The notes beneath the pieces were generated by a model. The model was not told the DNA's origin and did not search any database. It worked only from the letters and a program-made list of their open reading frames with translations. A DNA stretch of 55,200 bases from an uncultured Eubacteriales bacterium (GTDB taxonomy: Bacteria; Acidobacteriota; Aminicenantia; Aminicenantales; UBA8522). Location: positions 1 to 55,200 of the forward strand of contig CAZYWP010000005.1 of NCBI GenBank assembly GCA_964651495.1, written 5' to 3'. The position numbers and the translations under genes were made by a program. Below are positions 7,984 to 55,200 of this stretch, piece after piece. The stretch's first letter is position 1; every line of letters begins with the position of its first letter.

Positions 7984-9468
7984 CTACCTTTTCGGGACGA
8001 CCCGGGGCGCAAGGTCCACCGGAAGGGGCGATTTGTACTCGCGGCCCTTCTTTTTCGCCGTCCATTCTTCCCTCATTTTCTGGATCGTCTGGGGCTGGGC
8101 CAGGAAATCCAGGCAGGACGCCGCCATGACCTTGGCCGCGACGGCGAGCGCCTTGTGGCCGATGGACATGCCGGCGCAGGCGACCGCCGACCAGTGATGG
8201 CCGGGCGTGCCGAGCGGCTTGAAGGCGATCCCCAGGCTTGTCGTCGGCGCGAGCCAACTCACTTCCGCCACGTCCGTAGAGCCGCTTCCCCAGCTCCTCT
8301 CGGGGAGGGCAAAGGGCTCGATTTTCGCGCTCAGCCCCTTCGGCTCGACTCCCACGCTCTTCTGGATCTCCTTGGCGAAGGCCTGCTCCTCCTCGCTGAA
8401 CGGCGGCGGCCCCACGAGCAGCAGGTTGGAAAAGACGACCTCGTTTCCGGCGCGGTTGGGGAGCACTTCGTGCACTCCGCTCTTAAAGCGGATTTTGTAG
8501 GTGGTCTCGGTCATCATGGCGGCGCCGTCGATCACCTTGAGGACTCTCTCGTAATCCTTCTCCACGCTCTCCCGGTCGATGTCCCGGACATAATACCAGG
8601 CCCGGGCATAAGCGGGCACGACGTTCGGCGCTCCTCCCCCGTCGAGGATGACATAGTGGATGCGTGCCGTCGGCTGGAGATGCTCGCGCAGGAAATTCAA
8701 GCCGATATCGGCGAGCTCCACGGCGTCGAGGGCGCTGCGGCCGTGCCAGGGGTCGCCGGCGCTGTGGGCGGTCCGGCCGAAAAACTCGACCTCGAACTGG
8801 TTCAGGGCGTTGCTCGAGCCGAGAGAGACATTGTTGTCATCGCTCGGGTGCCACTGGATGCAGCAAGCGAGGCCGTTGAAAACGCCCTCGCGGGCCATAA
8901 AAACTTTTCCCTCGACTGTTTCCTCGGCCGGGCAGCCGAAGATTTTGAGTGTCCCCTTCAGACCGCCTTTTTCCATCGCCTCTTTCGTCGCCACGGCGGC
9001 CGCCACGCTGGCGACGCCGAAAACGTTGTGGCCGCAGCCGTGGCCGGGATCGCCCTCCCGGACCGGCTTCTGGACACTGGTGGCTTCCTGCGAGAGCCCG
9101 GGCAGGGCATCATATTCGGCGAGAAACCCGATGACCGGGTCGCCGGAGCCATAGACGCCCACGAAGGCGGTCGGGAGTCCGGCCACTCCTCTCTCGACCT
9201 TGAATCCGTTCTTTTCGATGTAGGAGGCCAGGGCTTCGGCTGAAAGGTATTCCTTCATGGCGACTTCGGCCGCCTGCCAGATCTCGTCATTCAGCTTTGT
9301 TAAATCCGCCATGTTGGCCTCGACCCAGGCGATGGCCGCTTTCTTGAGTGGAGTGAGCTTGGCGGGCTTAACCAGGATCTGGAGCGGATTATCCTCCGCC
9401 GATAAAAACAGGAGGGGTCCGATCAGCCCCAGAGCGATAAAAAATGTCAATAAAAAGCGTCTCTTCAT
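7984..9468 (-). CDS. AbgB-like M20 amidohydrolase with signal peptide
   Basis: AEYDALPGLSQ, GHGCGHN, GCPAEE, WHP, GRTAHSAGDPW.GRSALDAVEL, GSTDV, HHW motifs. Confidence 0.9.
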   Translation of the reverse strand: MKRRFLLTFFIALGLIGPLLFLSAEDNPLQILVKPAKLTPLKKAAIAWVEANMADLTKLNDEIWQAAEVAMKEYLSAEALASYIEKNGFKVERGVAGLPTAFVGVYGSGDPVIGFLAEYDALPGLSQEATSVQKPVREGDPGHGCGHNVFGVASVAAAVATKEAMEKGGLKGTLKIFGCPAEETVEGKVFMAREGVFNGLACCIQWHPSDDNNVSLGSSNALNQFEVEFFGRTAHSAGDPWHGRSALDAVELADIGLNFLREHLQPTARIHYVILDGGGAPNVVPAYARAWYYVRDIDRESVEKDYERVLKVIDGAAMMTETTYKIRFKSGVHEVLPNRAGNEVVFSNLLLVGPPPFSEEEQAFAKEIQKSVGVEPKGLSAKIEPFALPERSWGSGSTDVAEVSWLAPTTSLGIAFKPLGTPGHHWSAVACAGMSIGHKALAVAAKVMAASCLDFLAQPQTIQKMREEWTAKKKGREYKSPLPVDLAPRVVPKR

Positions 9469-9573
9469 TTCCGCTCCTTTCTTGGAGGGTTACCGGCCGA
9501 TGCCGCGGTCAGCGAATCCGGCTCGGTCAGATCCCAGGCTGGTGCCCTAAATAAGTTCAGCGGCGTGTCCCCC

Positions 9574-10545
9574 TCACGCGGGCTTCAGGGCAAAAATGGG
9601 GTTCAACTCGGCGGCCAGCCGCCGCAGCCTGGCGTCTTCCTCCGGGCTGAGCGGCGAAAACCGGTGGGCCAGCTCGAGCGCTTTTCTGAACAGCCGGGCA
9701 TCGCCCGGCGGGACGGCCGCAGTTACAGGCTGGGAGAGCGTGAAGCGGAGCGAGAGGCCGGCTTCCTCCGAGTCGAGGATCGGCTGATACCAGCACTTGG
9801 GCCACTCTTTTCTCATGTCCTTGTCCGGCCAGGCCTGCCGGGCCAGGGCTTTCAAGGCCAGGATCCCCATCTTTTTTTCTCTGGCCGCGGCGATGACCTG
9901 CGGGCCGAAATCGGATTTGTAAAAACAGGCAAAATTGACCGGGAAGAGGATGGTGTCGAAATCGAACCGCTTCATCGCCAGAAGGGCGTCCTCGGCGGAG
10001 TGGGCGGAGAACCCGATGAACCGGATTTTCCCTTCCTTTTTGGCCTGGAGAAAGGTCTCGATGGCTCCGTTCGGCCCGAGTGCTTGGTCGACATCATCTG
10101 TTTTCGAGATGGCATGGAGCTGGTAGAGGTCGAAGTGATCGGTCTGGAGCTTGAGCAGGGACTGATGGAGCTCCTCCTCTGCGCCCGCCCGGTCCCTTTT
10201 GAGCGTCTTGCAGGCGAGGAAGACGTTCTTCCGGTGGGGCTTGAGCGCCGGTCCCATCCGGTCTTCGGCGTTGCCGTAGCTCGGCGCCACGTCAAAATAG
10301 TTGACCCCGTGCTCGACCGCTTCGCGGACGATCCGGTTGGCGACTTCCTGCTCTTCGTTGGCCAGGACGAGCCCCCCGAGCCCGATGATGGAAAGGGACT
10401 CTCCGGTGCTGCCGAGCGGCCGACGGGGAAGTTTCTCCCCTGCCGCTTCGCCCAGGAAGGCCGGCCGGGAACCTTTCCGGCGCCCGGCGCCCGAGACACT
10501 CAGAAGACCTGCCGAAAAAGCCTGCAGAAATTTTCGTCTTTCCAT
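9574..10545 (-). CDS. Aldo/keto reductase with twin-arginine (Tat) signal
   Basis: MERRKFLQ Tat motif; GVNYFDVAPSYG, LACKT, DLYQLH, GFSAH, ALKALA. Confidence 0.9.
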   Translation of the reverse strand: MERRKFLQAFSAGLLSVSGAGRRKGSRPAFLGEAAGEKLPRRPLGSTGESLSIIGLGGLVLANEEQEVANRIVREAVEHGVNYFDVAPSYGNAEDRMGPALKPHRKNVFLACKTLKRDRAGAEEELHQSLLKLQTDHFDLYQLHAISKTDDVDQALGPNGAIETFLQAKKEGKIRFIGFSAHSAEDALLAMKRFDFDTILFPVNFACFYKSDFGPQVIAAAREKKMGILALKALARQAWPDKDMRKEWPKCWYQPILDSEEAGLSLRFTLSQPVTAAVPPGDARLFRKALELAHRFSPLSPEEDARLRRLAAELNPIFALKPA

Positions 10546-10906
10546 TTTCTCTCCAAAGCTCAGAAGGGCATTCTACCAAAACTCCGCTGATGAGGACAAG
10601 AAAAGCAAACAGGCTGGACCCCAATGCATCCACGATCAATCTCATGAGTGGGTGACCGTCACGCTGGGACACTCTATTGTAGCGGAAAATGCCCGGGCCG
10701 GAAAAGCGAATTTTAGGCCCACCAACTCCGCCCTCCCGGGCCGCCGCCCGGTCGGTTCGCGCCTGCGGGACTCCGTCCTGGGCGATAGGACTGCCCGGAA
10801 CCGGTCAAGAGGCTCCGGGAAGCACTGAGATCTCTAGGGCCCGAACGGAGCTCAGTTCAGAACGCAAACCCTAAATAATGTATATTCGGGGGGTCATCTT
10901 CGAGTT

Positions 10907-10922
10907 TGGCACGATTCTTGAA
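10907..10922 (+). promoter_or_regulatory. Sigma54-like promoter TGGCACG-ATTC-TTGAA upstream of the beta-barrel gene
   Basis: Perfect -24 element TGGCACG with correct spacing; -12 element reads TTGA rather than TTGC. Confidence 0.5.
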
Positions 10923-11045
10923 TTAGTCGGTTTTGAGGCACCGAGCTAAAAATCATACCGGTGCGATCTTGTCTCTCTGAGCCGACGGAGTCCCGGGTTG
11001 CGCTCCGAATTCTGCGGCGGCTCCAGAGATGGAATAGGAGGAGGA

Positions 11046-11609
11046 ATGATGAAACGATGGCTGATTCGAACCTTATGTCTTGGCTTGCTTACGCTACCCA
11101 TGGCCCCTCTCTTCGGGCAGAACGGCTTCTACCTGGGGCTGCAGGCAGGGCTTTCCAACGAGAATCCGAGCGTAGACAAGATCAAATTTGACAGGAACTC
11201 GGCTTTCCTCTACGGCGGCCAAGTCGGATTCCGGATTCATTCGCTGGCCATCGAGGGCCGGTTCTTCCGGGCAGACCATGAGCTGCTCTCCCCAGACCCT
11301 CGGCTGGATAACTATGATGGACTCGGACTCAATTACTATTATCTCGGCGCCAACGCCAAGCTCGGGATCCCCCTGGCAATCATCTATCCATACTTGACTG
11401 TTGGGTACGGGCTCTATGCCGCCAAAGTCGAGGACATTGGCGATGAATCCACAGCATCCTTCAGCGTGGGTGGGGGCGTTGAGCTGACACTGGGTAAAGT
11501 CGGGCTTTTCGCGGAACTTCTGTATATCGATTTTTCGGTTGACCTCACGGGGAAGAGCTGGGACTTCGGCGGAATGAACGTGCACGCCGGCCTCAACTTT
11601 CATTTCTGA
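11046..11609 (+). CDS. Small outer-membrane beta-barrel protein (OmpA/OmpW-like porin family)
   Basis: GGAGGAGG RBS before ATG at 11046; signal peptide; amphipathic strands, YPYLTVGYG, GGGVE; terminal Phe (NFHF). Confidence 0.85.
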   Translation: MMKRWLIRTLCLGLLTLPMAPLFGQNGFYLGLQAGLSNENPSVDKIKFDRNSAFLYGGQVGFRIHSLAIEGRFFRADHELLSPDPRLDNYDGLGLNYYYLGANAKLGIPLAIIYPYLTVGYGLYAAKVEDIGDESTASFSVGGGVELTLGKVGLFAELLYIDFSVDLTGKSWDFGGMNVHAGLNFHF

Positions 11610-11648
11610 CCGACGGTGCGGATGAAAGAGCGGCCTCCGGTCAAATTC

Positions 11649-11807
11649 AGGCGCGGGCGCTGAGGCCGAGCGGGGTGACGACCATCTCCAGGAACTTCTG
11701 GCATTCTGCGCCGACCGGGCAGAACTTCTTAATTTCTTTAGTCCCCATCTGCGCATTGGCGTAAAGCTTGAGGCCGTGGAAGCGCTCGAGCTGCCGCGCC
11801 CGGGCGC
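11649..11807 (-). pseudogene. comM: Orphan 159-bp diverged fragment of the comM 3' region
   Basis: Ungapped alignment to 12544-12702 with 16 mismatches by hand count; bounded by in-frame TAA and TGA. Confidence 0.9.
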
Positions 11808-41979: not shown

Positions 41980-42528
41980 TCAGCCTCCCCCGCCCGTCTT
42001 CCGGCCGAAGGCGAACAGGCTTCCGGCGCGGAAGATCTCGCGCTGGACGGCGCTCATGGGCTCCGCGGCAAAAGAAACGTTTTTGTTCAGGTTCCGGGCC
42101 TTCCCGGAAATAAGATCGATTTCCACCTCGTCGCCCGTCTCCAGGAGGCGGCCGGTCGTCAGACTCCCGAGCTCTGAACAGCGGAGAACCGGCAGCCCGG
42201 AATTGACGGCGTTCCGGAAGTAGATCGAAGAGTAGGACGGCGCCAGGATGGCCCCGATTTTCAGGGCGATGAAACAGTCGACGGCCTGCTGCCGGGAGGA
42301 GCCGGCGCCGAAATTCCGACCGGCGGCAATGATATCACCGGGCTTCGCTCTGGCCGGAAAATCCTTCCACCCTTCCAGGTTGCCAAAGGCATGCCGTCCC
42401 ATCTCGGAGAGGTCGGTGATGTGGAGGAAGGCGTTATGGAAGATCTGGTCGGTATCGATGTCTTCGATCAGGTTTCTCCCCTGATCGGTCAGAACCCAAA
42501 GGCGGCCGCGGTGCGCAGTCTCTTCCAT
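41980..42528 (-). CDS. Aconitase-family hydro-lyase small subunit (LeuD/HacB-like), pair 1
   Basis: DIDTDQI, NFGAGSSRQQA, IYFRNAVN.GLP. Confidence 0.88.
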   Translation of the reverse strand: MEETAHRGRLWVLTDQGRNLIEDIDTDQIFHNAFLHITDLSEMGRHAFGNLEGWKDFPARAKPGDIIAAGRNFGAGSSRQQAVDCFIALKIGAILAPSYSSIYFRNAVNSGLPVLRCSELGSLTTGRLLETGDEVEIDLISGKARNLNKNVSFAAEPMSAVQREIFRAGSLFAFGRKTGGGG

Positions 42529-43779
42529 TTACAGGTCCTCCGGGCCGGCGATCTGTCCCAAGACGCAGGAGGCGGCGACGACGGCCGGGCCAGCCAAATA
42601 GGTCTGGCCTTTCCCCTGTTTGCCGGCGAAATTGCGGTTTCCCGTACTGATCTGGACTTCCCCCCGGCCGGTCAGCCCGACATGGCCCTCGGCGCAGCCG
42701 CCGCAGCCGGGGTTGACGATTATGGCTCCGGCCTCGAATAAATTCTGGAGAATCCTATTTTCCAGGAGCTTTTCATAAACGCGGCGGGTCGCCGGAACGA
42801 TTTTCAGCATGATCCCTTTTTTGACCTTCCGGCCCTTGAGGAGACGGGCCGCCTCGGCGAAGTCCTCCAGCCGGCCGTTGGTGCAGGAGCCGATGAACCC
42901 GGAATCGATTTTCGTTCCCCGAAGCTCCGCCACAGGCCTGACGTTCGTCGGGGAAGGCGGGGCCGCCGCCTGCGGAGTGAGCCCCTGGATGTCGATTTCA
43001 AGGGTCTCGGCGTAGGCGGCATCGGCATCGGCCGCCACGGGCGAAAAGGGCACGCCGGCGTATTTCTCAATCTCTTTTCTTGCTTCCTGGCCGCACTCCG
43101 GTATGAACCCGATGATGCCAGCCATCTCGGTGACCATGCTGCAGAGCGTCAAGCGGCCGGCCAGGGTCAGGCCGGCCAGGGCCGGCCCATAAAACTCGGC
43201 CGATTTCAGGGCGATCTTCTTTGTCCCCAGCTCTCTGAGCAGGAACAGAGTAAGGTCTTTCGCCGAGGCGGGCTGATTCAAATTCCCTTTGATGACCACC
43301 CGAACCGATTCCGGGACCTCAAACCAGGTCCGGCCGGTCCGGAAGGCAAAGGTGATATCGACGTCGCCCATCCCCTGGCCGAAACACCCGATGGCCCCCA
43401 GGATGTTCATATGGCTGTCGGTGCCGACAACGATGGCGTTCGGACGGGCCAGCCCCTCTTCCATCAGCACGTGGGTGCCGATGCCGCTGTCGACGTCAAA
43501 GACTCCGGCGCCGTGCTTCCGGGCGAAATCGCGGCAGGCCTGCTGGTTGTCGGCGTAGCTGAGCGTGCAGGCGGGCGCACAGAGGTCGAAGGTGAAAAAC
43601 GTCCTGGCCGGGTCGGCCAGACCAAGGCCGGCGTATTCCCGTTCGTAATTCTTGACCACATTCGGGCCGCCGAAATCGCGGGCCGAGCGGACGTCCAGGT
43701 CCAGCCAGACAATCCGGCCGGGCGCCACATCGTCACCGGTGTGGGCCCGGATGATCTTTTCGATGATCGTTTTGCCCAT
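42529..43779 (-). CDS. Aconitase-family hydro-lyase large subunit (LeuC/HacA-like), pair 1, divergent active site
   Basis: GTDSH, GSCTNGRLED, NPGCGGC, STGNRNF.G.QG; start ATG at 43779. Confidence 0.88.
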   Translation of the reverse strand: MGKTIIEKIIRAHTGDDVAPGRIVWLDLDVRSARDFGGPNVVKNYEREYAGLGLADPARTFFTFDLCAPACTLSYADNQQACRDFARKHGAGVFDVDSGIGTHVLMEEGLARPNAIVVGTDSHMNILGAIGCFGQGMGDVDITFAFRTGRTWFEVPESVRVVIKGNLNQPASAKDLTLFLLRELGTKKIALKSAEFYGPALAGLTLAGRLTLCSMVTEMAGIIGFIPECGQEARKEIEKYAGVPFSPVAADADAAYAETLEIDIQGLTPQAAAPPSPTNVRPVAELRGTKIDSGFIGSCTNGRLEDFAEAARLLKGRKVKKGIMLKIVPATRRVYEKLLENRILQNLFEAGAIIVNPGCGGCAEGHVGLTGRGEVQISTGNRNFAGKQGKGQTYLAGPAVVAASCVLGQIAGPEDL

Positions 43780-43794
43780 TAGCCGCCTCAAAAC

Positions 43795-44910
43795 TCAGAG
43801 CTTGGCGCCAACTGCCTGCCCAATTTCAAGCGTGGTTGAAGTCCCGCCCATATCATAAGTCCGGGCTTGGCCTTCCCTGATCACCTCGGCGACGGCCTCC
43901 TCCAACCGTCTCCCTTTTTCCGTTTCTCCCAGCCATTCAAGCATCATCTTGGCGGCCAGGAGGGTGGCGATCGGGTTGACTTTGTACTGGCCGGCGTATT
44001 TGGGCGCCGAGCCGTGGGTCGGCTCGAAGACGGCGTATTTGTCGCCGATGTTCCCGGCCGAGGCGAACCCCAGCCCTCCGACCAGCTGGGCGGCGAGGTC
44101 GGAGATGATATCGCCGAACAGGTTTTCGGCCACGAGGATGTCGTAATCGTGCGGGTTCTTGACCAGCCACATGCACATGGCGTCCACGTTGGCCTCCTTG
44201 AGCGGGACCTGCGGATATTCCCTGGCGATCTTCCTGGCGAGGCCGAGCATCAGCCCGCCCGTTTCCCGCAGCACGTTCGGCTTTTCGACCACGGTCACCG
44301 AGCGGCGGCCAGCGTTGAGGGCGTATTCGAAGGCCGCCCGGACTATCCGCTCGCAGCCTTTTTTGGTCATGATCCGGGTCGAAAGGGCGATTTCATCGAG
44401 GGGAGTCGCCGCGAACGCCTTCATTTTGGGGTGGATGAGTAACGCGTCTCTCACAGACTGGGGCAGGGGAAAAAATTCCACGCCGGCATACATGCCCTCG
44501 GTGTTCTCGCGGAAGATCACCAGATCGATATTGTCGCGGTAGTTGAGGGGATTGCCCGGGTAGGCCCGGCAGGGCCTCATGTTGGTGTAGAGGTCGAATT
44601 CCTGGCGCAGCCGGACGATCGGGCTGAAATAGGACAACCCTTTGCCCTGCAGCGCGGGATCGAGCTCAGCGGCGGAGTCTTCCTTGGGCTTCGAGGTGAT
44701 CGCGCCGAACAGGCAGGCGTCGGTCGCCTTGAGCATCGCGATCGTGCGGTCGGGCAGGGCGTTGCCCTCCCGGCGCCAGAATTCCCAGCCGATATCGCCG
44801 TAAATATACTCGGCGTCGACTTCGAGCTTATTCAGGACGATCATGGCGGCCTCGATTACGTCCCGGCCTACTCCATCTCCCGGTAGGACGGCGATTCGGT
44901 ATTTAGGCAT
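43795..44910 (-). CDS. Isocitrate/isopropylmalate (beta-hydroxyacid decarboxylating) dehydrogenase family protein
   Basis: IAVLPGDGVG, LRQEFDLY.N.RP, RENTEG.Y, K.NVL, NLFGDIISDL.A.L.GGLG, FEPTHGSAP..AG....NP.A. Confidence 0.92.
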   Translation of the reverse strand: MPKYRIAVLPGDGVGRDVIEAAMIVLNKLEVDAEYIYGDIGWEFWRREGNALPDRTIAMLKATDACLFGAITSKPKEDSAAELDPALQGKGLSYFSPIVRLRQEFDLYTNMRPCRAYPGNPLNYRDNIDLVIFRENTEGMYAGVEFFPLPQSVRDALLIHPKMKAFAATPLDEIALSTRIMTKKGCERIVRAAFEYALNAGRRSVTVVEKPNVLRETGGLMLGLARKIAREYPQVPLKEANVDAMCMWLVKNPHDYDILVAENLFGDIISDLAAQLVGGLGFASAGNIGDKYAVFEPTHGSAPKYAGQYKVNPIATLLAAKMMLEWLGETEKGRRLEEAVAEVIREGQARTYDMGGTSTTLEIGQAVGAKL

Positions 44911-46387: not shown

Positions 46388-46814
46388 CTGCCCCTCATCC
46401 TCCAAAAATTTAAGTTGAAGCCGCCGAAAAAACTAAAGATCAATTCCCGCTTGCAGTGAAGACTCGACGGTAGTTTTGGTGAAATTAAAAGAGTTAATCC
46501 TGCCAAGTGTCAAACTTGGATTAGCCTCCTCCTTTTAGAGGAAGAGAAGCAAACCAAAAATCACCCCTTAAATCATCCAGAAAGACTGAGATAAAGAGCG
46601 AAGGATCTTGAAGGAGCAACCGCTGTCCACGGCGAGTTCCCATCCACCACTCTCCTGGCCACCGATTTCTTTTCCAGCTCGCTTCGGAGCTTTCGAGCAC
46701 GAAGCGAGCCGCCCCGCGATTCTCACTTTGTAATTATTAAGGAGGATTGTAAATACCCAAAAAAGGTTATTTTGGAGGTTATTTTAGATTAGCAAATATG
46801 AAAATGGGTAATGG

Positions 46815-47090
46815 CTATCTATACGCGTCCCCTCTTGGGAGTATCGCCACGATTTCAACGATCTTTCTCTCTTTGAAGAGCCGATAGATCAGCCGCCAGT
46901 CCCCAATTCTGTATCGAATAAGCCCTTTCAACTGTCCTGTAAGAGGTTTAATGTTATTCCCATATATCGGGTTCTTTTCCAAATCTTCAAAACAACCGTC
47001 AAGTCTTTGCTGGATATCCCTGGACGCTTTATCATAGACTCTTTTCGCCGGTTTCGTAAGGACTATTTCCCAGATGTCTTTTTGCGCCAC
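46815..47090 (-). CDS. RelE/ParE-family type II toxin
   Basis: W.I..T..A, L..NP, KPLTG.L.GL.RYRIGDWR.IY, I.PRGDAY. Confidence 0.88.
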   Translation of the reverse strand: MAQKDIWEIVLTKPAKRVYDKASRDIQQRLDGCFEDLEKNPIYGNNIKPLTGQLKGLIRYRIGDWRLIYRLFKERKIVEIVAILPRGDAYR

Positions 47091-47305
47091 TTAACAATCT
47101 CGCCTTTTTCTGAAGCTTTTAATCCCTGTTGGATGGCATCCATCCAGTCGGGTCGGGAAAGAATCTCGAGAGTCTCTTGGTGTCTTTCTAAATATTCTTC
47201 AATGAGCTCTGAGAGTATTTCCTTGATGTTCCTTTTCTCAACACTGGCAATGATTTTGAGGGTGTCTCTCTTGTCCTCAGAAATTCTTACGGTTGTTGTA
47301 GACAT
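47063..47305 (-). CDS. Cognate antitoxin (RHH-like N-terminus, YefM-like C-terminus)
   Basis: TTTVRISE, ELIEEYLE, ETLEILS.PD.MD.I..G; upstream of and overlapping the toxin. Confidence 0.8.
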   Translation of the reverse strand: MSTTTVRISEDKRDTLKIIASVEKRNIKEILSELIEEYLERHQETLEILSRPDWMDAIQQGLKASEKGEIVKWRKKTSGK

Positions 47306-47323
47306 ATTCGCTCTCCTGAAATT

Positions 47324-47352
47324 AGTCTACTTGTTTCAGTTTTTGTTGTCAA
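47324..47352 (-). promoter_or_regulatory. Sigma70 promoter TTGACA-N17-TAGACT of the TA operon
   Basis: Read directly on the minus strand; AGGAG RBS downstream. Confidence 0.75.
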
Positions 47353-47374
47353 GTCCAGGGCGCAAGAAATTCAG

Positions 47375-48036
47375 TTACAGTTTGGCGATGCCTTCTTTTA
47401 TCGCGTAGCGGACTAGGTCAGCCTGCTTGTGGAAGCAGAGCTTGCGCATGATGTTTTTCCTGTGGACGAGGGCGGTGTTTAAGCATAAATCCAGCTTCGA
47501 GGCGATCTCTTTCACGGTCAGCCCCTCGGCGATAAGCTGGAGGATTCCTCTTTCCCGCGGGGTGAGGGCCGAGGGTGCTCTGACCGCATCCCGGCTGTGC
47601 GTCTTGCTCTTCCCGCACAGAAAGCCGTGGACAAGAAACCCGGAGATGGCCGGGCTGACATAGTATCTTCCATTGCTCACTTCGCGGATGGCCTGAATCA
47701 CCTCATCGGTGGCGCTCTCCTTGAGCAGGTAGCCATGGGCGCTGCTGAGGAAGGCCTTCTCGACAATCGAGCGGCTGTCGTGGACGCTGAGAATGATGAC
47801 CTTGCTCCGGGGGTCCTTTCTGATGAACCTTGGGTAGTCTCGATGCCGTTGAGAACGGGCATGGACACATCCAGGATATAGACATCGACGCCGAGTTTCC
47901 CGGCCGTCTCCAGGGTGGCCAGGCCGGCAGATGCTTCGCCGACAATCTGGATATCGCTGCTCCCGGCCTCAATGGCGAAGCGCAGCCCTTCCCTGACGAT
48001 AGGGTGGTCATCAGCAAGAAAGACGCGGATGCTCAT
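47375..48036 (-). pseudogene. NarL/LuxR-family response regulator split by a 1-bp deletion
   Basis: REC start (LADDH.IVREG, LDVSMP.LNG) in one frame; IILSVH...GYLLK and the LuxR HTH (LTPRE..IL.LIAEG...KEIA..L) in another; 662 nt, one base short of 221 codons. Confidence 0.85.
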
Positions 48037-49574
48037 CTCCCGCGCCTCCCAAATAGGGGATCGGACTTCGGCGCAGACTCTGGTGCGGGCGTTGCTCCAC
48101 CGGCCGCCTCCGCGCGGAGACCGGAGTCGCGCTCCGCAGGCCTCTCGGCAGGCAGGGTAACAAGGATCTTTGTCCCTTTGCCCGGTGAGGAGTGGATTTC
48201 AAGCGTCCCATTCAGGGACTCGACCATTTCTCTGATCAGCCGGAGGCCCATCGCGGATTCTCCACCCTGACTATTTTTCTTAGGGTCAAATCCAAGCCCA
48301 TTATCTTTGATGGCCAGGCTTATCGTTCTTCTCTGGGATTTGAGGACAACTATTACTCTATTCGCGCGCGAATGTTTGAGGATGTTGTTGACGGCTTCCT
48401 GGACGATTCGGAAGACGACGATCGGCAGGTTGCCCTGAATTTTTTTATCATTTACGCTTGATCGAAAGTCAATCCTGAGGCCTGTCTTTTTTTCAATGTT
48501 TGAAAGGTAATGACCAAGCGCGCTCGAAAGGCCCAGGATATCCAGCTCGGGCGGCCGCATTTCGAGCGCCAGCCTCCTGAGATTTGAGACAAAATCATTG
48601 AATATGGCCCTGAATTTCTGGCAGGACTCCAGGGCCGCTTTCAGATTGTTGTTCTTTATATTTTTTTCCAGCGAACCCGAAAGCAAGTTTATCGCACCCG
48701 TGATATGGCCGATCTCCCCGTGAAGGTTCAGCGAAATTCTTCTCTTTTCTTCTTCTCTTGCCAGAAAAATCCGGCGGGCAAAATGCTTGAGCGCCTTATG
48801 CTGCCGGAGGATTATTTCATGGGCCTGCTTTTGGGCACTGATGTCATAGGAGATTCCGACGAAACCAACGAGATTCTCCTTAGGATCGCGGAGGGGGGTA
48901 ATGGAGACCATCGCCGGAAAGGCTGTTCCATCTTTGCGGCGGACGAGAATCTCACCGCTTCTGGTCTCCTTCCTTCCAAGTCTCTTCTTGGCAGTTCTGT
49001 CATCATCAACCCATGTTTTTATCGGAATGTTATCCCTGAGCTTGGCCCCGATTATTTCTGAAGCCTTCCAGCCATAAAGGGTCTCGGCAAACTTGTTCCA
49101 GTAGATAATCCTGCCCTTGAGGTCGGTGGCGAGGACGGCCTGGCTGACCGCGTCGAGGAGGTTCGATTGGAAACGGAAGCATATCTCTGCCAGCTTCCGG
49201 ATGGTCACATCATGGATCAGGGCAAGAGCCAGGTTTTTATCGCCGTATTTCACGGGAAAGCCCTGGACCTCGACAAAAACCTGGCTTCCGTCTTTTCGGT
49301 TCAATATGTACTCATTGGGTCCGCTCGGCTTGCCCTTTTTCCAATTATTGATAGAGGATTCAAGTTTAGCTAATTGATTGGGGGTTATGATGTTGAGCTC
49401 GGAAACTTTTTTCCCTTTTAGCTCCTCACGAGAGTAGCCGAAGAGCTTAGCCGCCGCTTCGTTGACGTCGATCAAGACACCGGTTAGGTCAACCAGGTAG
49501 TAGGCGACTGGAGAAGATTCGAATATTGTCCTCAGCCAGATTTCCGCCTCTCCAAGCCCTCCTCTCCTAATCAA
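48033..49574 (-). CDS. Cytoplasmic PAS-PAS HisKA_3 sensor histidine kinase
   Basis: Two PAS/PAC repeats (VNEAA..LFGYS.EEL; WN..AE.LYGW), LHGEIG, LRP..L..LGL, EAVNN..KH, DNG.GFD, MGL..IRE, S.PG.GT; start uncertain. Confidence 0.88.
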   Translation of the reverse strand: MIRRGGLGEAEIWLRTIFESSPVAYYLVDLTGVLIDVNEAAAKLFGYSREELKGKKVSELNIITPNQLAKLESSINNWKKGKPSGPNEYILNRKDGSQVFVEVQGFPVKYGDKNLALALIHDVTIRKLAEICFRFQSNLLDAVSQAVLATDLKGRIIYWNKFAETLYGWKASEIIGAKLRDNIPIKTWVDDDRTAKKRLGRKETRSGEILVRRKDGTAFPAMVSITPLRDPKENLVGFVGISYDISAQKQAHEIILRQHKALKHFARRIFLAREEEKRRISLNLHGEIGHITGAINLLSGSLEKNIKNNNLKAALESCQKFRAIFNDFVSNLRRLALEMRPPELDILGLSSALGHYLSNIEKKTGLRIDFRSSVNDKKIQGNLPIVVFRIVQEAVNNILKHSRANRVIVVLKSQRRTISLAIKDNGLGFDPKKNSQGGESAMGLRLIREMVESLNGTLEIHSSPGKGTKILVTLPAERPAERDSGLRAEAAGGATPAPESAPKSDPLFGRRGR

Positions 49575-49829
49575 GGTCTATCTCTGTCTCTGAAGCGTGT
49601 TTTCTGGTTCGAAAACCTGAGCAGACCCATCGCGGCCCAAAATATTGCGAATATCCGGTGGCAAGGCTGACCAACTTTCTTTTGCTTTTTGTCGGTCTCA
49701 TCAACTTTTAAGACCGTAACGTGTTTATAGTATAAAATAGCTATTGGAAAATCAAGGACTTATTAACTTAATGTGACGATTTTCCCATCCTACCATCGTG
49801 GGGAACTGTAAATCACGGCTAAAATGATA

Positions 49830-52800
49830 TCAATGCAACCCATGAGGCGAGGAGGATGGAGTGAGGCGCTTCTTCGCATCTACCAACTCAGGAATGCCCG
49901 GGTCGGCGTCTTTCCACAGCTCAAGGAATCTCGTATACTCTCTTCTTGCCTCTTCCTTCAAGCTTTTCTGCTCGTACAATTTTGCCGCTCGATAATGATA
50001 GATGGGATTATGCATCCTGCGGTCCTGGCTCGCCGGGTCGAAGGTAACTAATTTCTTGTATTCGTCGATCGCCCCGTCCAAGTTCCCCATCTTCTGATGG
50101 GCCCGCGCCAGGACGTCCTGGTCCAGCGGAAAGTTATACCAGGTGAATGTCCGAGCATAGGCCGGGTTGAAGATGGGGATATTCAAGGCGAACTCTTTTT
50201 CCATAAAGCTTATAGCCTCGTCCGCTTTCCCTTCAGACAGCATAATTTCCGCCTGAAGGATGCGGTAGTTTTTCTGGAGCTGCAGGTAAAGGTTGCGTTG
50301 ATTTCCAGGGAATCCTGCCATCAACGACCGGATTTCGTCGACCCTTTGCTTGGCTTCTCTGGTCTGCCCCCTTTTCCATTCGACAAATCCAAGCCAAAGG
50401 CTGTTTTCTACGGGAATCAACCATTCGAGTTGGGGCAGGGCTTCTTTGGCATCCTTCTGGTATTCTGAAAACCGCTTGACAGCCGCATCAAACTCGCCCC
50501 GTTCCAAATAAAAATTGGCCTGGACGAGTTTGGCCAAGGCGGTCCCGTATGCATCTCCGATCGATTCCCAGGCTACCCTGACTCGTTCCATTTCCACCCC
50601 GGCCTGCTCTCGTTTGCCCAGGACATAGTTAAAAATCGCTTTCCACCAGTAACCGAGGCTCTGGACGCTCTTGGATGGTGCGGCGAGAATGAATTGGTCC
50701 AGCCAGCCCATCGCCTCTGCGTAAGCTCCCTTGACGGCATAAATATTGGCGATGATATCCTCGGAACCAAAATCCGGCTTGATCCGCACCGCTTCTCTGT
50801 ATTGGGCGACCGCCTCATCGAGCCGGCCGGTGAGGAAGTAGAGTTGCCCCAGAGAATCCAAGGGATTGGCGTCTTCCGGAGCCACGGAAACGGCCTTTTT
50901 CAGGTATTCTTCCGCTTTGCCGAGATCCCCCGTCTCCATATACAAATAGCCAAGCTGATTCAGGATGGTTGCCCACTGGGGATCCAGCTCCAGGGCTTTG
51001 CTTGCTTCTGCGATCGCTTCCGGATACATCTTTTTCTGTTGGTAAATCCCAAAAAGTGTACTGTGGACTTCCTTTTCCTTGGGATATTTGGCGGCGATTT
51101 CCTGGAGGATGCCGAAATCTTTATCGGCATTTTTCTCCACCCTCCTGGCATAGGTGGCCTCGATGTACAATCGCTCTTTTTCGGCCGCCCTTCCGGAATG
51201 AGCCTTGGCTTTCTCCAGAGCCTCGGCTGCCAGCTGAGGCCTATTTAAATATCGGTAGACTTGATAAAGGGACAGATAGGCCACGGCGAATTGGGGATCG
51301 AGCTCTACGGCTTTTTCCAGGTTATTGCGAGCATCTTCGAAGTACATTTTGTCCAAATTTTCCCGCCCTTCGAGGAAATACTTGTAGGCATCCAGCGAAG
51401 GCGTTTGCACCGGCGCCGAGTCCCGGCTTGTCTCTTCGGCCGCCTTCTGGGACAGGCCGACGCCGCGGGATATTTCCCGGCTCAGTTGGCCGATTTGCTT
51501 GTCCAGGATGCTCTGCGCCCCCTCCCCTCTGGCGGTGGCACTTCTCAGCAATTTCCTGGTCTGGACGTCAAACATCTTCACGTCCGTGGCAAACGTCTCG
51601 CCCGCCTTGACATAGCTGCCCAGGACGAGAGCATCGACATTGTCCTTCTTACACAGTTCAAAACCGAGCTCGCTGTCGATGATGTCGGCCTGTTCCTTCC
51701 CCACCTGCCTGAGGAGGTCGCGCAGCCGTTCGAAGGTCGTGACGTGGAGATATTTTGACTGTTCCAGGCTGGTGATCAAAAGGTTGGGGATGGCGGCCTG
51801 GAGGTAATCGTAGGCCTGGTCCCCCGTTTGATTTTGAAAAGTGATGACCGCTATAGCCCTCTCCACGGCTTTCGCTCTAAAAACAACACGCCAGAGCACG
51901 AGCCCGACGACGACTATCCCTGCAACCGCCAGAATGGGGATCAAGAGTCTCTTCAGCCCGAAAGTCACCGTGATTTCTCTGGAGGTCAGGGCTTTTTTCT
52001 TGGGTTTATCTCTTTCGGCAGAGGGGAATCCTTTTTCGATGGCCTCAATCTCTGCGCGCAGCTCATCGGCCGTCTGAAACCTCTTCTCTTTTTCTTTTTC
52101 CAGGCACCTGAGGATCAGCCGGCTGAGGGCTGCGGGAAGCTGCGGGTTCCATTCCTTTGGATCCCTGGGCTTCTCGCCCTTATGCTTCATGGCTACGCTG
52201 AGCGGTGTCTCGCCTTCGAAAGGAACGCGGCCGGTGACCATCTCGTAGAGGATGACTCCCAGCGAATAAATATCCGACCGGCCGTCCACCTCTTTCGCTT
52301 CCGCCTGCTCCGGTGACATGTAGTCGGGTGTCCCGATGATGAACCCGGTCCCGGTGATCGCCTCTGTCCTGAGCGAGCGGGCGATCCCGAAGTCCATGAT
52401 CTTGGCGTTTCCCTCGCGGTCGATCATGATGTTGCCGGGCTTGAGATCGCGGTGGACGACGCCCAGCCGGTGGGCTTCGGCCAAGCCTTCCGCGACCTGG
52501 CCAGCGATGAAAAGCGCTTTGGCCGAAGGCAGTTGGCCGATCCTTTTGATCAAGCTTTTCAGGTCCTCCCCGGCGACATATTCCATGGTGATGAAGTGGA
52601 CTCCGCCGGATTCTCCCAGGTCATGCATGCGGCAGACGTTGCGGTGCGAGATTTTACGGGCGATCTTTAATTCCTGATTGAACCTGGCGATGATCTTCCG
52701 GTCCGAGGAGATCTGGGGATTGATCAGCTTAAGTGCGATTTCCTCGCTAATTTTTTTGTCTTCGGCTCGATAGACGGCGCCCATGCCGCCCCGCCCCAGC

Positions 52801-52994
52801 TCTTCGATGATCTCGTACCGGCCGGCGAAGACCGTCCCGCGGGCAAGGTCCAATTGGGGCATACTCAACGTCTCGGTCGTGGAAACCGAGAATTCCGGAG
52901 AAGACGGAAGCGGAGTCCCGCACTTGCCGCAATAAAAGGTATCAGGGGGGTTATCAAACTCGCATTTCGGACAGCTGACGGGTTCTTTTTTCAC
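49830..52994 (-). CDS. Zinc-ribbon / Hanks Ser/Thr kinase / TM / TolB-like / TPR protein
   Basis: CPKC...CGKC; GRGGMG.VY, ALK, HRDLKPGN, DFG, GTPDYMSPEQ, DIYSLG; TM helix; TPR repeats; GTG at 52994 preferred. Confidence 0.92.
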   Translation of the reverse strand: MKKEPVSCPKCEFDNPPDTFYCGKCGTPLPSSPEFSVSTTETLSMPQLDLARGTVFAGRYEIIEELGRGGMGAVYRAEDKKISEEIALKLINPQISSDRKIIARFNQELKIARKISHRNVCRMHDLGESGGVHFITMEYVAGEDLKSLIKRIGQLPSAKALFIAGQVAEGLAEAHRLGVVHRDLKPGNIMIDREGNAKIMDFGIARSLRTEAITGTGFIIGTPDYMSPEQAEAKEVDGRSDIYSLGVILYEMVTGRVPFEGETPLSVAMKHKGEKPRDPKEWNPQLPAALSRLILRCLEKEKEKRFQTADELRAEIEAIEKGFPSAERDKPKKKALTSREITVTFGLKRLLIPILAVAGIVVVGLVLWRVVFRAKAVERAIAVITFQNQTGDQAYDYLQAAIPNLLITSLEQSKYLHVTTFERLRDLLRQVGKEQADIIDSELGFELCKKDNVDALVLGSYVKAGETFATDVKMFDVQTRKLLRSATARGEGAQSILDKQIGQLSREISRGVGLSQKAAEETSRDSAPVQTPSLDAYKYFLEGRENLDKMYFEDARNNLEKAVELDPQFAVAYLSLYQVYRYLNRPQLAAEALEKAKAHSGRAAEKERLYIEATYARRVEKNADKDFGILQEIAAKYPKEKEVHSTLFGIYQQKKMYPEAIAEASKALELDPQWATILNQLGYLYMETGDLGKAEEYLKKAVSVAPEDANPLDSLGQLYFLTGRLDEAVAQYREAVRIKPDFGSEDIIANIYAVKGAYAEAMGWLDQFILAAPSKSVQSLGYWWKAIFNYVLGKREQAGVEMERVRVAWESIGDAYGTALAKLVQANFYLERGEFDAAVKRFSEYQKDAKEALPQLEWLIPVENSLWLGFVEWKRGQTREAKQRVDEIRSLMAGFPGNQRNLYLQLQKNYRILQAEIMLSEGKADEAISFMEKEFALNIPIFNPAYARTFTWYNFPLDQDVLARAHQKMGNLDGAIDEYKKLVTFDPASQDRRMHNPIYHYRAAKLYEQKSLKEEARREYTRFLELWKDADPGIPELVDAKKRLTPSSSPHGLH

Positions 52995-53066
52995 TTTTCT
53001 GCTTGTTGGCAAGAAGATATCAACTCTGCGAAAATTAGTCAACCGGCTGGTGACGGCTGACTTACC

Positions 53067-53609
53067 CTAGCGCTCTATTCTCTCCAGCCGCTGAACAATG
53101 GCCGTGTACTTCTCGTGGATCATGCGGCGGTCAAACTCCCGCATCTCCTCCAACATTGCATCCTGCTCCTCGCGGCTGAAGTACTTCAATGAGGCGGGAA
53201 AAAACACCTTGTCTTCCTTCCTGATGTGCTCGGGATAGAAACTGGCCAAGCCGGCCATCCTTTCGGCTGCTGCGCCAACAGCTCTCTTGTCTCCAGAAAG
53301 GCAGCGCTCCTTGGCTTCCACCAGCTCGGCGACTATCTTGCGCGCATAGGCATGCTCGTCAACCAGCTCCTGCATGACCCGGCGGTCCTCTGTTGATAGA
53401 TTTTTTTGAGCGAGATCTCTAAACAGGATGTTCTCTTCCTTTCCATGATGCGTCCGGTCGGCATACACCCGGATGAAATCCACGAGAGTGTCGATGAGCA
53501 GTGGATCCACTTTGCCATTCCGGGCTATTCTCTCCGCTTCTTGGCGCAGAACCTCAATCCCTTTCTCGATGAGCCGGTGCTCAATCATTAGCGGGCCAAT
53601 CGTTAACAT
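53067..53609 (-). CDS. Hemerythrin/HHE cation-binding domain protein
   Basis: EHRLI, HH.KEE..LF, EH, HI.KED.VFFP. Confidence 0.9.
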   Translation of the reverse strand: MLTIGPLMIEHRLIEKGIEVLRQEAERIARNGKVDPLLIDTLVDFIRVYADRTHHGKEENILFRDLAQKNLSTEDRRVMQELVDEHAYARKIVAELVEAKERCLSGDKRAVGAAAERMAGLASFYPEHIRKEDKVFFPASLKYFSREEQDAMLEEMREFDRRMIHEKYTAIVQRLERIER

Positions 53610-54129: not shown

Positions 54130-55200
54130 AGGAGTTTCCTCGGGTCTGTGATCTTGCCTTCCAGGGCTGAGGCTGCGGCCGTCGCCGGAGAAGCCAAGTA
54201 GATCTCGGAGTCGCGGTTTCCCATCCGGCCCCGGAAATTGCGGTTCGAGGTGCTGACCACGACCTCGCCCGCCGCCAGCAGGCCTTCGTGAGCGCCGAGA
54301 CAGGGCCCGCAGCCGGGGTTGAGGATGACACAGCCGGCCTCGGACAGGGTTTCGAGGAGGCCCTTTCGCATCGCCTCGAGGTAGACCTCTCGCGACGCCG
54401 GGAGTACGAGAGCGCGGACGCGCGGATGGACTTTCTTGCCTTTGACGATCCGGGCCGCGACCTCGAGGTCCTCCAGGCGGCCGTTCGTACATGTGCCGAT
54501 GAGGGCCTGGTGGAAGGGCTTGCCCTCCGCTTCGCGCACGGGCTTGACGTTGTCCACGGTGTGCGGGCAGGCGACCTGCGGCTCGATCGCAGACAGATCG
54601 TACTTCAGGATAGCTTCGTACTTGGCGCCGGGATCCGATCTCACGATCTCATAGTCGGCCCGCGCCCGCGCTTTCACCCACTCGAGAGTCTTTCCGTCCG
54701 GCTCGAAATAGCCGTTCTTGGCGCCCATCTCGGCAGCCATGTTCGCCATCACCATACGCGAGGCCAGGCTGAAATCGCCGGCCGCCGGCCCCGAGAACTC
54801 TATGGCTTCGTAGTTAGCCCGGTCGGCGCCGTGGTCGCCGATGATTTTGAGGATGGCATCCTTGGCATAGACGCCGGCCGGCAGCTTTCCGGAAAACTCT
54901 ACCCGCAGCGTCTCCGGCACACGCAGCCAGATCTCGTCCGTGGCCCAGATGCTGGCCGTCTCGGTCCGGCCGATGCCGGCGGCAAACGCCCCGAACGCCC
55001 CGTAGGTCGTCGTATGGGAATCGCTCCCGACGATGAGTTTTCCCGGCAGGGCGAAGCTCGCCTCGCTCAGGACTTGGTGGCAGACGCCGTGCTGGATATC
55101 GAAGAAATGCGGGATGCCCTGCGCCGCCACAAACTCGCGGATCGTCTTGTGGTTCTGGGCGTATTTCTCGTCGGCGGCCGGGACGATGTGGTCGAGGACG
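54126..55200 (-). CDS. Aconitase-family hydro-lyase large subunit (LeuC/HacA-like), pair 2, 5'-truncated by the window edge
   Basis: Frame open to the window end (VLDHIVPA); GVCHQV, GSDSHTTTYGA, GTCTNGRLED, NPGCGPC, STSNRNF.GRMG. Confidence 0.92.
   Translation of the reverse strand, partial: VLDHIVPAADEKYAQNHKTIREFVAAQGIPHFFDIQHGVCHQVLSEASFALPGKLIVGSDSHTTTYGAFGAFAAGIGRTETASIWATDEIWLRVPETLRVEFSGKLPAGVYAKDAILKIIGDHGADRANYEAIEFSGPAAGDFSLASRMVMANMAAEMGAKNGYFEPDGKTLEWVKARARADYEIVRSDPGAKYEAILKYDLSAIEPQVACPHTVDNVKPVREAEGKPFHQALIGTCTNGRLEDLEVAARIVKGKKVHPRVRALVLPASREVYLEAMRKGLLETLSEAGCVILNPGCGPCLGAHEGLLAAGEVVVSTSNRNFRGRMGNRDSEIYLASPATAAASALEGKITDPRKLL

Follow-up and report, generated by a model that had tools for sequence, protein, structure and literature searches.

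The window analyzed here is a 55,200-nt stretch of contig CAZYWP010000005.1 from an uncultured bacterium of the Aminicenantia, and it encodes two pairs of aconitase-family subunits (Table 1). The large subunit of pair 1, the main subject of this study, has a leucine at the position of the catalytic histidine His101 of aconitase. Pair 2 is of the canonical type and runs into the end of the contig. Pair 1 starts 15 nt after the gene for a β-decarboxylating dehydrogenase of the isocitrate/3-isopropylmalate dehydrogenase (IDH/IPMDH) family, the spacing between its two genes is 0, and tsaB begins 1 nt after the small-subunit gene. The open reading frame of the large subunit opens at a TTG at 43791 and ends at 42529, with the ATG at 43779 corresponding to the MGKT start of its orthologs. 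A 223-bp divergent intergenic region separates the dehydrogenase from a plus-strand Gfo/Idh/MocA oxidoreductase gene.

Table 1. Genes and active-site codons of pair 1, pair 2 and their neighbors. Residue numbers are those of aconitase; "His-less" and "other" refer to the large subunits in the tree described in the text.
Feature	Position	Strand	Remarks
IDH/IPMDH-family β-decarboxylating dehydrogenase, 371 aa	44910-43795	minus	Pfam Iso_dh PF00180, E 7e-89, 299 bits
Pair 1 large subunit (His-less, aconitase family), 416 aa	43779-42529	minus	Pfam Aconitase PF00330, E 2e-68, 232 bits
Leu codon CTC at the His101 position	43582-43584	minus	within F-D-L-C-A-P-A-C
Thr-His in place of His147-Gln148	43471-43476	minus	canonical His gone, new His one residue on
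Ser at the Asn258 position	43138-43140	minus	S in 38/38 His-less, N in 62/62 others
Lys at the Arg452 position (NRNFAGK)	42619-42621	minus	K in 36/36 His-less, R in 62/62 others
Pair 1 small subunit, 182 aa	42528-41980	minus	Pfam Aconitase_C PF00694, 42.9 bits
tsaB	41978-41298	minus	Pfam TsaD family
rimI-like GNAT acetyltransferase, final gene of the run	41256-40825	minus	Pfam Acetyltransf_1
Pair 2 large subunit, canonical-type partner, interrupted by the contig end	55200-54126	minus	partner clade in the tree
Pair 2 small subunit	54129-53638	minus	start overlaps the large-subunit stop (ATGA)

A sequence-only reading of this DNA had proposed that the Leu codon of pair 1 lies opposite the His of a conserved Asp-His motif. 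This was borne out by a gap-free BLASTP alignment of the two large subunits and by HMMER alignments to the large subunits of the solved isopropylmalate/citramalate isomerase (IPMI) and homoaconitase of M. jannaschii (FDHQVPA and FDHNVPP), in which the Leu again falls opposite the His. In aconitase, His101 is paired with Asp100 and protonates the leaving hydroxyl, Ser642 is the base, Cys358, Cys421 and Cys424 are the cluster ligands, and Asp165, His167 and His147 form the hydrogen-bond network of the open iron (PMC8184944). The second motif of pair 1 reads GIGTHV instead of the canonical G(V/I)CHQV (GVCHQV in pair 2), with Thr at the position of His147 and a His at the following one. Two more replacements, N258S and R452K (NRNFAGK versus canonical NRNF(R/K)GR), affect residues that we take to be cluster and substrate contacts in aconitase, and DSH is followed by MNIL rather than by T(C/T)T(Y/H). 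The three [4Fe-4S] cysteine ligands (C358, C421 and C424, in GSCTNG and GCGGC) are present, and Asp100, Asp165-Ser166-His167, Glu262, Asn446-Arg447 and the GSSR serine loop are all retained. The small subunit carries GAGSSRQQA where pair 2 has GCGSSREQA. Aligned to solved HacB and LeuD, it keeps the equivalents of Ser642 and Arg644, and it has a clade-specific loop, DTDQIFHNAFLHIT (the IFHNAFLHIT region), together with GSSRQQ. The motif differences and the retention of the three Fe-S cysteines, DSH and NRNF were thus as first described.

Judged by its fold and cluster ligands, pair 1 belongs to the aconitase superfamily. Both of its domain matches (Table 1) lie above the Pfam gathering score. 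Its large subunit passes only the generic subfamily model NF001614 (399.8 versus a cut-off of 385) and falls below every LeuC, HacA and aconitase equivalog cut-off. The scores of pair 1 were as follows: LeuCD models TIGR02083 (303 versus 610.65), TIGR00170 (143 versus 560) and TIGR02084 (103.8 versus 245.85); homoaconitase models NF040615 (306.6 versus 550), NF040604 (95 versus 230) and PRK14023 (86.6 versus 229); and the aconitase model PRK07229 (232.7 versus 612), with the AcnA and AcnB models far below cut-off. The small subunit passes the generic LeuD/DmdB family TIGR02087 (LEUD_arch; 116.5 versus 108.95) and fails the LeuD and HacB equivalogs, and its loop reads FLHI, not the YLRT of homoaconitase. 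Since His101, His147, Asn258 and Arg452 are missing and the equivalogs fail, pair 1 should not be filed under LeuCD, homoaconitase or aconitase. The best matches among solved structures were the M. jannaschii IPMI (MJ0499/MJ1277) and HacAB proteins (PDB 4KP1, 4NQY, 4KP2, 3VBA and 2PKP), with E-values of 4e-80 for the large and 2e-24 for the small subunit. Pair 1 resembles them in its two-subunit build, three cluster cysteines, DSH, E262, R447 and GSSR loop. Unlike them, it lacks His101 and His147, has H148, S258, K452 and DSH-x-N-(I/L)-(L/M), carries IFHN(R/A)(Y/F)L in the small-subunit loop where they have IIPGPYLRT or ILPARYLVY, and stands in a context without a LeuA- or AksA-type synthase.

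The dehydrogenase scores below cut-off in all 16 NCBIfam models, the best being AksF2 (344 versus 540). Its catalytic Tyr and Lys, metal-binding Asp and substrate-binding Arg residues align with those of solved homoisocitrate dehydrogenase (HICDH) and isocitrate dehydrogenase (ICDH) through the motifs ENTEGMY, VEKPNV, NVDAM, NLFGDIISD and RLRQ...RP...FRE. Val occupies the position of Arg85 of Thermus HICDH and Ile that of Asn115 of Escherichia coli ICDH. The presence of a decarboxylating dehydrogenase in the pair 1 operon, also part of the sequence-only reading, is therefore upheld, with its catalytic residues intact.

We then examined how far the loss of the histidine extends. Among the 120 best database relatives of the large subunit (73-92% identity; those with names are labeled Aminicenantes), 116 have Leu at the His101 site, 113 of them in FDLCAP, two in FDLCVP and one in FDLSAP. 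Three of the other four read FDVSVP and one did not match the search pattern; all 120 carry the other substitutions of pair 1. The initial caveat that CTC is a single base from CAC, and might be a sequencing or assembly error, can be set aside because the orthologs share the Leu. A search of 50%-identity representatives traced the same signature to proteins only 41-57% identical, some of them fusions of the large and small subunits of about 600-640 aa.

A maximum likelihood tree of 100 large subunits placed the 38 that are His-less in a single clade (Shimodaira-Hasegawa-like approximate likelihood ratio test [SH-aLRT] support, 100) apart from 62 partner and other LeuC/HacA-type sequences. A survey of one genome per species showed that the clade spans more than 10 phyla. 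Its carriers are found in the Aminicenantes/Acidobacteriota, Thermoplasmatota (including Aciduliprofundum), Spirochaetota, Planctomycetota, Fibrobacterota, Krumholzibacteriota, Eisenbacteria, Zixibacteria, Chloroflexota (Anaerolineae), Marinimicrobia, Cloacimonadota and Chlorobiota and in many environmental Bacteroidales/Marinilabiliales, and they include the cultured Carboxylicivirga caseinilyticus A049. The gene is rare within a phylum sampled evenly, occurring in 2 of 401 Bacteroidota genomes. Several columns of the alignment separate the two sets of sequences sharply (Table 2).

Table 2. Residues at active-site positions (aconitase numbering) in the two sets of large subunits.
Position	38 His-less sequences	62 other sequences
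101	C27, L5, T3, Y2 (0/37 His)	H 62/62
146	G 38/38	C in 43, E in 13, other residues in 6
147	T33, S3, Q2	H
148	H 38/38	Q in 48; A, V or T in 14
169	N 38/38	C in 48; T, S, V or P in 14
258	S 38/38	N
452	K 36/36 with a residue aligned there	R

Although the 38 sequences are only about 45-50% identical, the three cysteines, D165/S166/H167, E262, R447 and the GSSR loop are invariant among them, and the motifs I(F/Y)H(N/G) and GSSRQQAVDCF run through the small subunits or fourth domains of the whole clade. The His of I(F/Y)H(N/G) is present in every member, including the basal one from the Anaerolineae. The invariance of both the kept and the new residues across such divergent members argues for a conserved function, and, as far as the alignments allow us to infer, His148 (residue 103 of the window protein) and the small-subunit His (residue 31) are the obvious candidates to stand in for the missing acid/base pair of histidines. 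The sequence-only reading had also pointed to a new Cys pair near the site. The pair is there, but only the Aminicenantes lineage has it: in most of the clade the site holds one Cys, which occupies position 101, and several members have none at 101/102 (101 is then L, T or Y, and 102 is V, Q or another residue). A role in binding the cluster as its fourth ligand, or as an indispensable catalytic thiol, was rejected for this reason, and the extra cysteines are unlikely to be catalytic, because they are not conserved across the clade. One relative of the clade, P0131, retains the three cluster cysteines and also lacks Asp165-Ser166-His167 (which reads GCSLAAL), Asn446 and Lys452; it may be a degenerate or differently specialized offshoot.

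Pair 2 had been taken as an independent LeuCD reference, a role it cannot keep, since it turned out to be a conserved partner of pair 1 in a single module. The final 55 bases of the window (55146-55200; VLDHIVPAADEKYAQNHK) recur at the start of another contig of the same genome, C4, and we therefore take C4 (1-4255) to continue the locus. Its start holds the first ~80 codons of the pair 2 large subunit. Pair 2 is preceded on its strand by four genes, which encode a citryl-CoA-synthetase-like large subunit with ATP-grasp and ATP-citrate lyase (ACL) citrate-binding domains, a CoA-ligase small subunit, a citryl-CoA lyase (a truncated citrate-synthase fold) and a 177-aa HD/HDIG protein. With the two contigs joined, the full module comprises citryl-CoA synthetase, citryl-CoA lyase, the HD protein, pair 2, the IDH-like dehydrogenase and pair 1. 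Between pair 2 and the pair 1 operon, at about 46.4-53.6 kb (~46400-53609), the window carries hemerythrin-like, Ser/Thr kinase-TPR, PAS histidine kinase, LuxR regulator and toxin-antitoxin genes. This run is missing from the syntenic locus of another Aminicenantes genome (UBA8522; locus L007), where the Gfo-like gene alone separates pair 2 from the dehydrogenase and pair 1. Given that arrangement, the 7-kb run looks like an insertion that split one module.

The large subunits of the partner enzymes, pair 2 of the window among them, form a clade of their own (17 sequences; SH-aLRT, 98) that contains all of the canonical active-site residues and branches much as the His-less clade does. To the extent that contigs were long enough to show neighbors, which many of the about 117 loci were not, the partner gene adjoined the His-less gene at 16 of ~37 loci from genomes and 34 of 80 from metagenomes, an IDH-like gene was nearby in 11 of ~37 and 34 of 80, and an HD gene in 11 of ~37 and 43 of 80. 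Gene order and translational coupling of the His-less gene with the partner enzymes are conserved across loci. The module dehydrogenases are a distinct group, marked by a conserved insertion and by SPIV before the first substrate Arg. The HD protein is usually encoded between the dehydrogenase and the His-less gene; it had no match among solved structures, and only a generic HD/HDIG domain was found in it.

The surroundings of the module vary. A Bacteroidota genome (G046) has a fused His-less gene on its own (contig C19, 134793-136595), none of the dehydrogenase, HD, partner and lyase genes lying within 9 kb of it, and so the module is not always contiguous. In two loci (L010, 7986-12016, and L011; Spirochaetales and a rumen metagenome-assembled genome [MAG]), the His-less large subunit occurs without a His-less small subunit, and a GT4 glycosyltransferase gene and a SPOR-domain gene lie between it and a partner-type small subunit (GKYTYT); this lineage may pair its subunits differently or use the enzyme differently. 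Ten loci of one Bacteroidales sublineage (L030, L032, L039, L141, L142, L152, L163, L168, L169 and L171) have BrkB/YihY-family and divergent BioG (pimeloyl-ACP methyl esterase) genes directly upstream of the His-less and partner genes, with the dehydrogenase and HD genes not adjacent, and two Bacteroidales MAGs have AsnA (aspartate-ammonia ligase) between the His-less and partner genes (L033, 9819-10853; L040, 4413-5447). Being confined to sublineages, BioG/BrkB and AsnA were rejected as parts of the module. An Anaerolineae locus (L021, 12793-13368) has a gene after the module dehydrogenase in which Pfam finds hexapeptide repeats only; its N-terminal sequence suggests a γ-carbonic anhydrase-like protein, which, if correct, would suit the carboxylating direction.

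No convincing internal terminator was found in the run of genes, and this, with the tight spacing, makes co-transcription through tsaB-rimI plausible, as the sequence-only reading had suggested. Nevertheless, the same order was seen elsewhere only in loci of the Aminicenantes type (L007 and L008). A functional coupling to tsaB or rimI was rejected on account of this lineage-specific adjacency, which is probably incidental to what pair 1 does.

The module is attached to three non-identical citrate-cleaving systems in different lineages. The first consists of a CitD-CitE fusion and CitF, the latter passing the citrate-lyase alpha equivalog (524 versus 501). The second, in Thermoplasmatales, consists of CitF and citryl-CoA lyase, and the third, in Aminicenantes, Anaerolineae and Planctomycetes, of CcsAB and Ccl, where Ccl passes citryl-CoA-lyase subfamily models. 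These C-C cleaving partners thus match citryl-CoA synthetase/lyase and CitDEF at the family or equivalog level. The known citryl-CoA synthetase/citryl-CoA lyase (CCS/CCL) and CitDEF systems act on citrate beside an ordinary aconitase, whereas here they accompany two LeuCD-type enzymes, an HD protein and a dehydrogenase that is not an ICDH. One metagenome locus (L108, 4256-7384) has two tandem CitF genes (citrate lyase alpha/CoA-transferase) between CitDE and the dehydrogenase. A unit that joins a lyase with two hydro-lyases and a decarboxylating dehydrogenase implies, from gene content, a linear path in which a 2-oxoacid would be interconverted with the next shorter 2-oxoacid and an acetyl unit, the intermediates being a citrate-like tertiary alcohol, an alkene and, last, a secondary alcohol.

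The module comes on top of standard enzymes in its carriers. No HMGL-like (LeuA/CimA-type) gene was found in the 88%-complete assembly to which the window belongs. The same assembly has AcnB next to ICDH (contig C20) and a third IPMDH-like gene (contig C58, 942-3567; leuB model, 240 versus 353), which overlaps an aldehyde dehydrogenase gene in what is possibly a further hydroxyacid/aldehyde oxidation pair. C. caseinilyticus has, besides the module, a leu operon, a 757-aa aconitase, DapA, LysA and several HMGL-like genes; the aconitases of this genome and of a second carrier (G002) are 757-759 aa long. Leucine biosynthesis was rejected as the role of the module because no LeuA-type gene was found in the 88%-complete genome of the window and other carriers have a separate leu operon. 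The chain-elongation-like route of the sequence-only reading was right as to the type of chemistry, which is that of 2-oxoacid elongation or shortening; the module goes with enzymes of the citrate-lyase or citryl-CoA-lyase type and an HD protein instead of a LeuA-type synthase. The gene context points to shortening and to the catabolism of lysine and 2-oxoadipate.

The link to lysine is clearest in C. caseinilyticus (locus L038). There an operon of CitDE, CitF, dehydrogenase, HD, His-less and partner genes, the last two coding for fused proteins (7998-9809 and 9866-11650), is followed after 21 nt by a gene for piperideine-6-carboxylate (P6C)/aminoadipate-semialdehyde dehydrogenase (equivalog, 819 versus 730), then by an AlaDH/PNT-type gene resembling lysine-ketoglutarate reductase (LKR) and by saccharopine dehydrogenase (SDH). 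Two metagenome contigs (L093 and L104) have the same order, and the first of them has a histidine-utilization operon directly upstream, its genes being named from N-terminal sequences only. In three other loci (L101, L108 and L111), a different SDH/LKR pair, 30-38% identical, lies upstream of CitDE-CitF; this is a second, independent arrangement of lysine genes. Genes of the Sacchrp_dh_C family occur in 31 of 33 carriers of one set and 4 of 5 of another. The SDH type of roughly 450 aa is present in at least 28 of 39 carriers, compared with 92 of the 401 sampled Bacteroidota (Fisher p of about 1e-9, uncorrected for shared ancestry), and the P6C-dehydrogenase equivalog in 12 of 34 carriers of one set and 3 of 5 of another, compared with 1 of 14 control genomes. 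The genome of the window has an LKR/SDH-like pair that is 30% and 38% identical to that of Carboxylicivirga and adjoins AmmeMemoRadiSam B and hrcA (contig C12, 914-3570). The saccharopine pathway ends in 2-aminoadipate, one transamination away from 2-oxoadipate. The presence of the aldehyde dehydrogenase together with the diaminopimelate pathway argues for catabolism rather than lysine synthesis, and lysine biosynthesis by the aminoadipate route was rejected: C. caseinilyticus has DapA and LysA, the genome of the window has near-threshold hits to them, and the adjoining aldehyde dehydrogenase is catabolic.

Our preferred reading, which we hold tentatively, is that the module contains a two-enzyme isomerase of the homocitrate type in a route from 2-oxoadipate to 2-oxoglutarate and an acetyl unit. 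Pair 1 would be an active [4Fe-4S] hydro-lyase from a separate and widespread branch of the aconitase superfamily, with the acid/base network at the cluster rebuilt (His101 and His147 lost, His148 and the small-subunit His gained, N258S and R452K), and it would act together with the canonical-type pair 2 as the isomerase for a citrate homolog. The IDH-like enzyme would interconvert 2-oxoadipate plus CO2, with NAD(P)H, and homoisocitrate. Pair 2 would take the secondary-alcohol half of the isomerization (homoisocitrate to cis-homoaconitate and back) and pair 1 the tertiary-alcohol half (cis-homoaconitate to homocitrate and back). Homocitrate would finally be split into acetate or acetyl-CoA and 2-oxoglutarate by a citrate-lyase-type system, namely citryl-CoA synthetase with citryl-CoA lyase here and CitDEF, or CitF with Ccl, elsewhere. 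Anaerobes could use such a route to clear the 2-aminoadipate that the saccharopine pathway forms from lysine, and the product of the route, 2-oxoglutarate, would be the co-substrate consumed by the saccharopine steps.

The assignment of the two halves is made by analogy. The homoaconitases of fungi and Thermus catalyze the homoaconitate/homoisocitrate half only, and a second aconitase-family enzyme carries out the homocitrate half; in yeast Aco2p, a change of an active-site Arg to Lys shifts the preference from aconitate to homoaconitate (PMC3556520). This α-aminoadipate pathway (Aco2p/AcoA with Lys4/LysTU) resembles the module in its use of two aconitase-family enzymes followed by a homoisocitrate-type dehydrogenase and in the Arg-to-Lys change of the enzyme on the homocitrate side. 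It differs in that its first enzyme is a full-length aconitase with all of its histidines, in its biosynthetic role and in its LeuA-type homocitrate synthase, in place of which the module has a LeuCD-type first enzyme without His101/His147, a citrate-lyase or citryl-CoA-lyase C-C enzyme and a catabolic context. Part of the sequence-only reading, that pair 1 has a different mechanism or substrate, stands to this extent: the loss of both His motifs is real and conserved, and the active site is organized differently. We infer the direction, the activity and the substrate from residues and gene context.

Several observations weigh against the homocitrate route. The small-subunit loop of the partner, (K/R)YTY(T/Q) or NLTY, and the SPIV segment of the dehydrogenase lack the Arg that presumably recognizes the distal carboxylate in M. 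jannaschii HacB (YLRT) and in Thermus HICDH (Arg85). The HD protein has no role in the scheme, and no aminotransferase was seen in the module clusters. Only about 6 loci have lysine genes next to the module, in two or three arrangements; the genome of the window keeps its LKR/SDH-like genes away from the module and lacks the P6C dehydrogenase equivalog; and the spirochetal lineage of L010 and L011 lacks SDH as well as the His-less small subunit. The His-less clade is without any biochemically characterized member, and a search of the full-text literature on this module, on a reverse homocitrate route and on His-less LeuCD-type enzymes returned nothing relevant. Lastly, the lyases score as citrate lyase or citryl-CoA lyase, and plain citrate would fit them equally well.

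The last point leads to a serious rival, though one that we regard as doubtful, in which the same two-enzyme module handles citrate, cis-aconitate and isocitrate, acting as a split aconitase with an isocitrate dehydrogenase and citrate cleavage. It could form a segment of reductive tricarboxylic acid (TCA) cycle type or serve as an outlet for glutamate and 2-oxoglutarate, with reductive carboxylation giving citrate for cleavage into an acetyl unit and oxaloacetate. The model scores of CitF and Ccl and the ACL citrate-binding domain of CcsA agree with citrate as the substrate, and the CCS/CCL-like genes that Planctomycetes and their relatives carry have been interpreted as reductive TCA genes (PMC5459899). 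The lysine association may itself reflect a citrate/2-oxoglutarate route, as lysine degradation through saccharopine and histidine degradation (hut genes upstream in L093) both end in glutamate and hence in 2-oxoglutarate. A single aconitase is enough for citrate, however, and carriers already hold standard enzymes for it: AcnB and ICDH in the genome of the window and aconitases in C. caseinilyticus and G002. The partner small subunit lacks an Arg corresponding to Arg580 of aconitase, and the dehydrogenase has Ile in place of Asn115 of E. coli ICDH; we assume that both residues serve substrate recognition. Moreover, the 2-aminoadipate formed by the adjoining P6C dehydrogenase would be left with no onward route.

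A bolder form of the homocitrate reading, which we think rather unlikely, makes the His-less enzymes stereochemically inverted hydratases of a reverse-aminoadipate pathway that turns lysine into acetate and glutamate/2-oxoglutarate in more than 10 phyla, with no need of 2-oxoadipate dehydrogenase or glutaryl-CoA. By Cahn-Ingold-Prelog (CIP) reasoning, the acetate arm of (R)-homocitrate is pro-R-like, which is the arm handled by aconitase-type enzymes. Canonical aconitase/homoaconitase chemistry handles (R)-homocitrate only, and in (S)-homocitrate the acetate arm is pro-S-like. The lyases attached to the module belong to the pro-3S (si) type, as the name of model TIGR01588, citrate (pro-3S)-lyase, indicates. 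To release the acetate arm, a lyase of this type would need (S)-homocitrate, and the rebuilt acid/base set (without His101 and His147; His148, the small-subunit His, K452 and S258) would then add water to the opposite face of cis-homoaconitate, which would explain the rearranged residues at the open iron. The methylcitrate cycle offers a functional analogy for a special first hydro-lyase beside si-type enzymes: its si-type condensation product is not dehydrated by ordinary aconitase but by PrpD, or by AcnD with PrpF, after which a canonical aconitase (AcnB) rehydrates the product. The likeness ends there, since PrpD is not an Fe-S protein and has an unrelated fold, AcnD has the canonical aconitase residues, and the cycle includes no dehydrogenase step.

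It is improbable that the module serves another pair of 2-oxoacids, such as pyruvate and an acetyl unit, linked to 2-oxobutyrate through citramalate, citraconate and 3-methylmalate (for isoleucine supply, or in threonine/methionine catabolism), or some other uncharged or short-chain homolog. The YTYT loop of the partner and SPIV of the dehydrogenase are closer to the hydrophobic patterns of IPMI and IPMDH than to those of homoaconitase, HICDH or ICDH; CitE-family lyases include citramalyl-CoA lyases (RipC_Ccl, 168 bits); and the genome of the window is devoid of a LeuA/CimA gene as far as its 88%-complete assembly extends. Yet no ilv, threonine or methionine gene neighbors the module in the about 117 loci, where saccharopine genes recur, and several HMGL-like genes as well as a normal leu operon are present in C. 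caseinilyticus. A different type of reaction, either cis/trans or positional isomerization of an aconitate-type intermediate, for which AcnD with PrpF provides a precedent on methylaconitate, or a reaction on a CoA thioester (citryl-CoA), is very improbable. Loss of the hydroxyl-protonating His along with R452K and N258S would suit it, as would the CoA-transferase, CoA-ligase or lyase genes that are always near; it is at odds with the retained Ser base loop (GSSR), D165/H167/E262 and the open-site three-Cys pattern of a hydro-lyase, and it has no precedent in the LeuCD-type subfamily. Substitutions of His101 cripple mitochondrial aconitase, and CTC could in principle be a miscalled CAC; still, that pair 1 is a dead or regulatory paralog, of which Aspergillus AcoB is an inactive example (PMC3556520), or that its Leu codon is an error, is scarcely credible when 116 of 120 orthologs have the Leu, the whole clade lacks the His, the cluster ligands, Ser loop and new residues are invariant over more than 10 phyla, and gene order and translational coupling are conserved.

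The pair 1 clade is real and widely conserved, and it is without a characterized member. His-Asp pairs at the open iron are textbook features of aconitases, and a large natural clade does without two of them while everything else stays strongly conserved; it constitutes a natural test of which residues Fe-S hydro-lyase chemistry requires and of how that chemistry can be rerouted. All His-less members are annotated as "3-isopropylmalate dehydratase" or as generic aconitase-family proteins, which misassigns them to leucine synthesis or the TCA cycle in Aminicenantes, Thermoplasmatota, Cloacimonadota, Marinimicrobia, environmental Bacteroidales and others, and the attached CCS/CCL genes have been taken as evidence for autotrophy. 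The cultured carrier C. caseinilyticus A049 makes the lysine idea directly testable. If the link to lysine is true, the module would give protein-degrading anaerobes an oxygen-independent, CoA-sparing means of lysine degradation, and pair 1 would be the type of enzyme that had been lacking on the homocitrate side of the isomerization.

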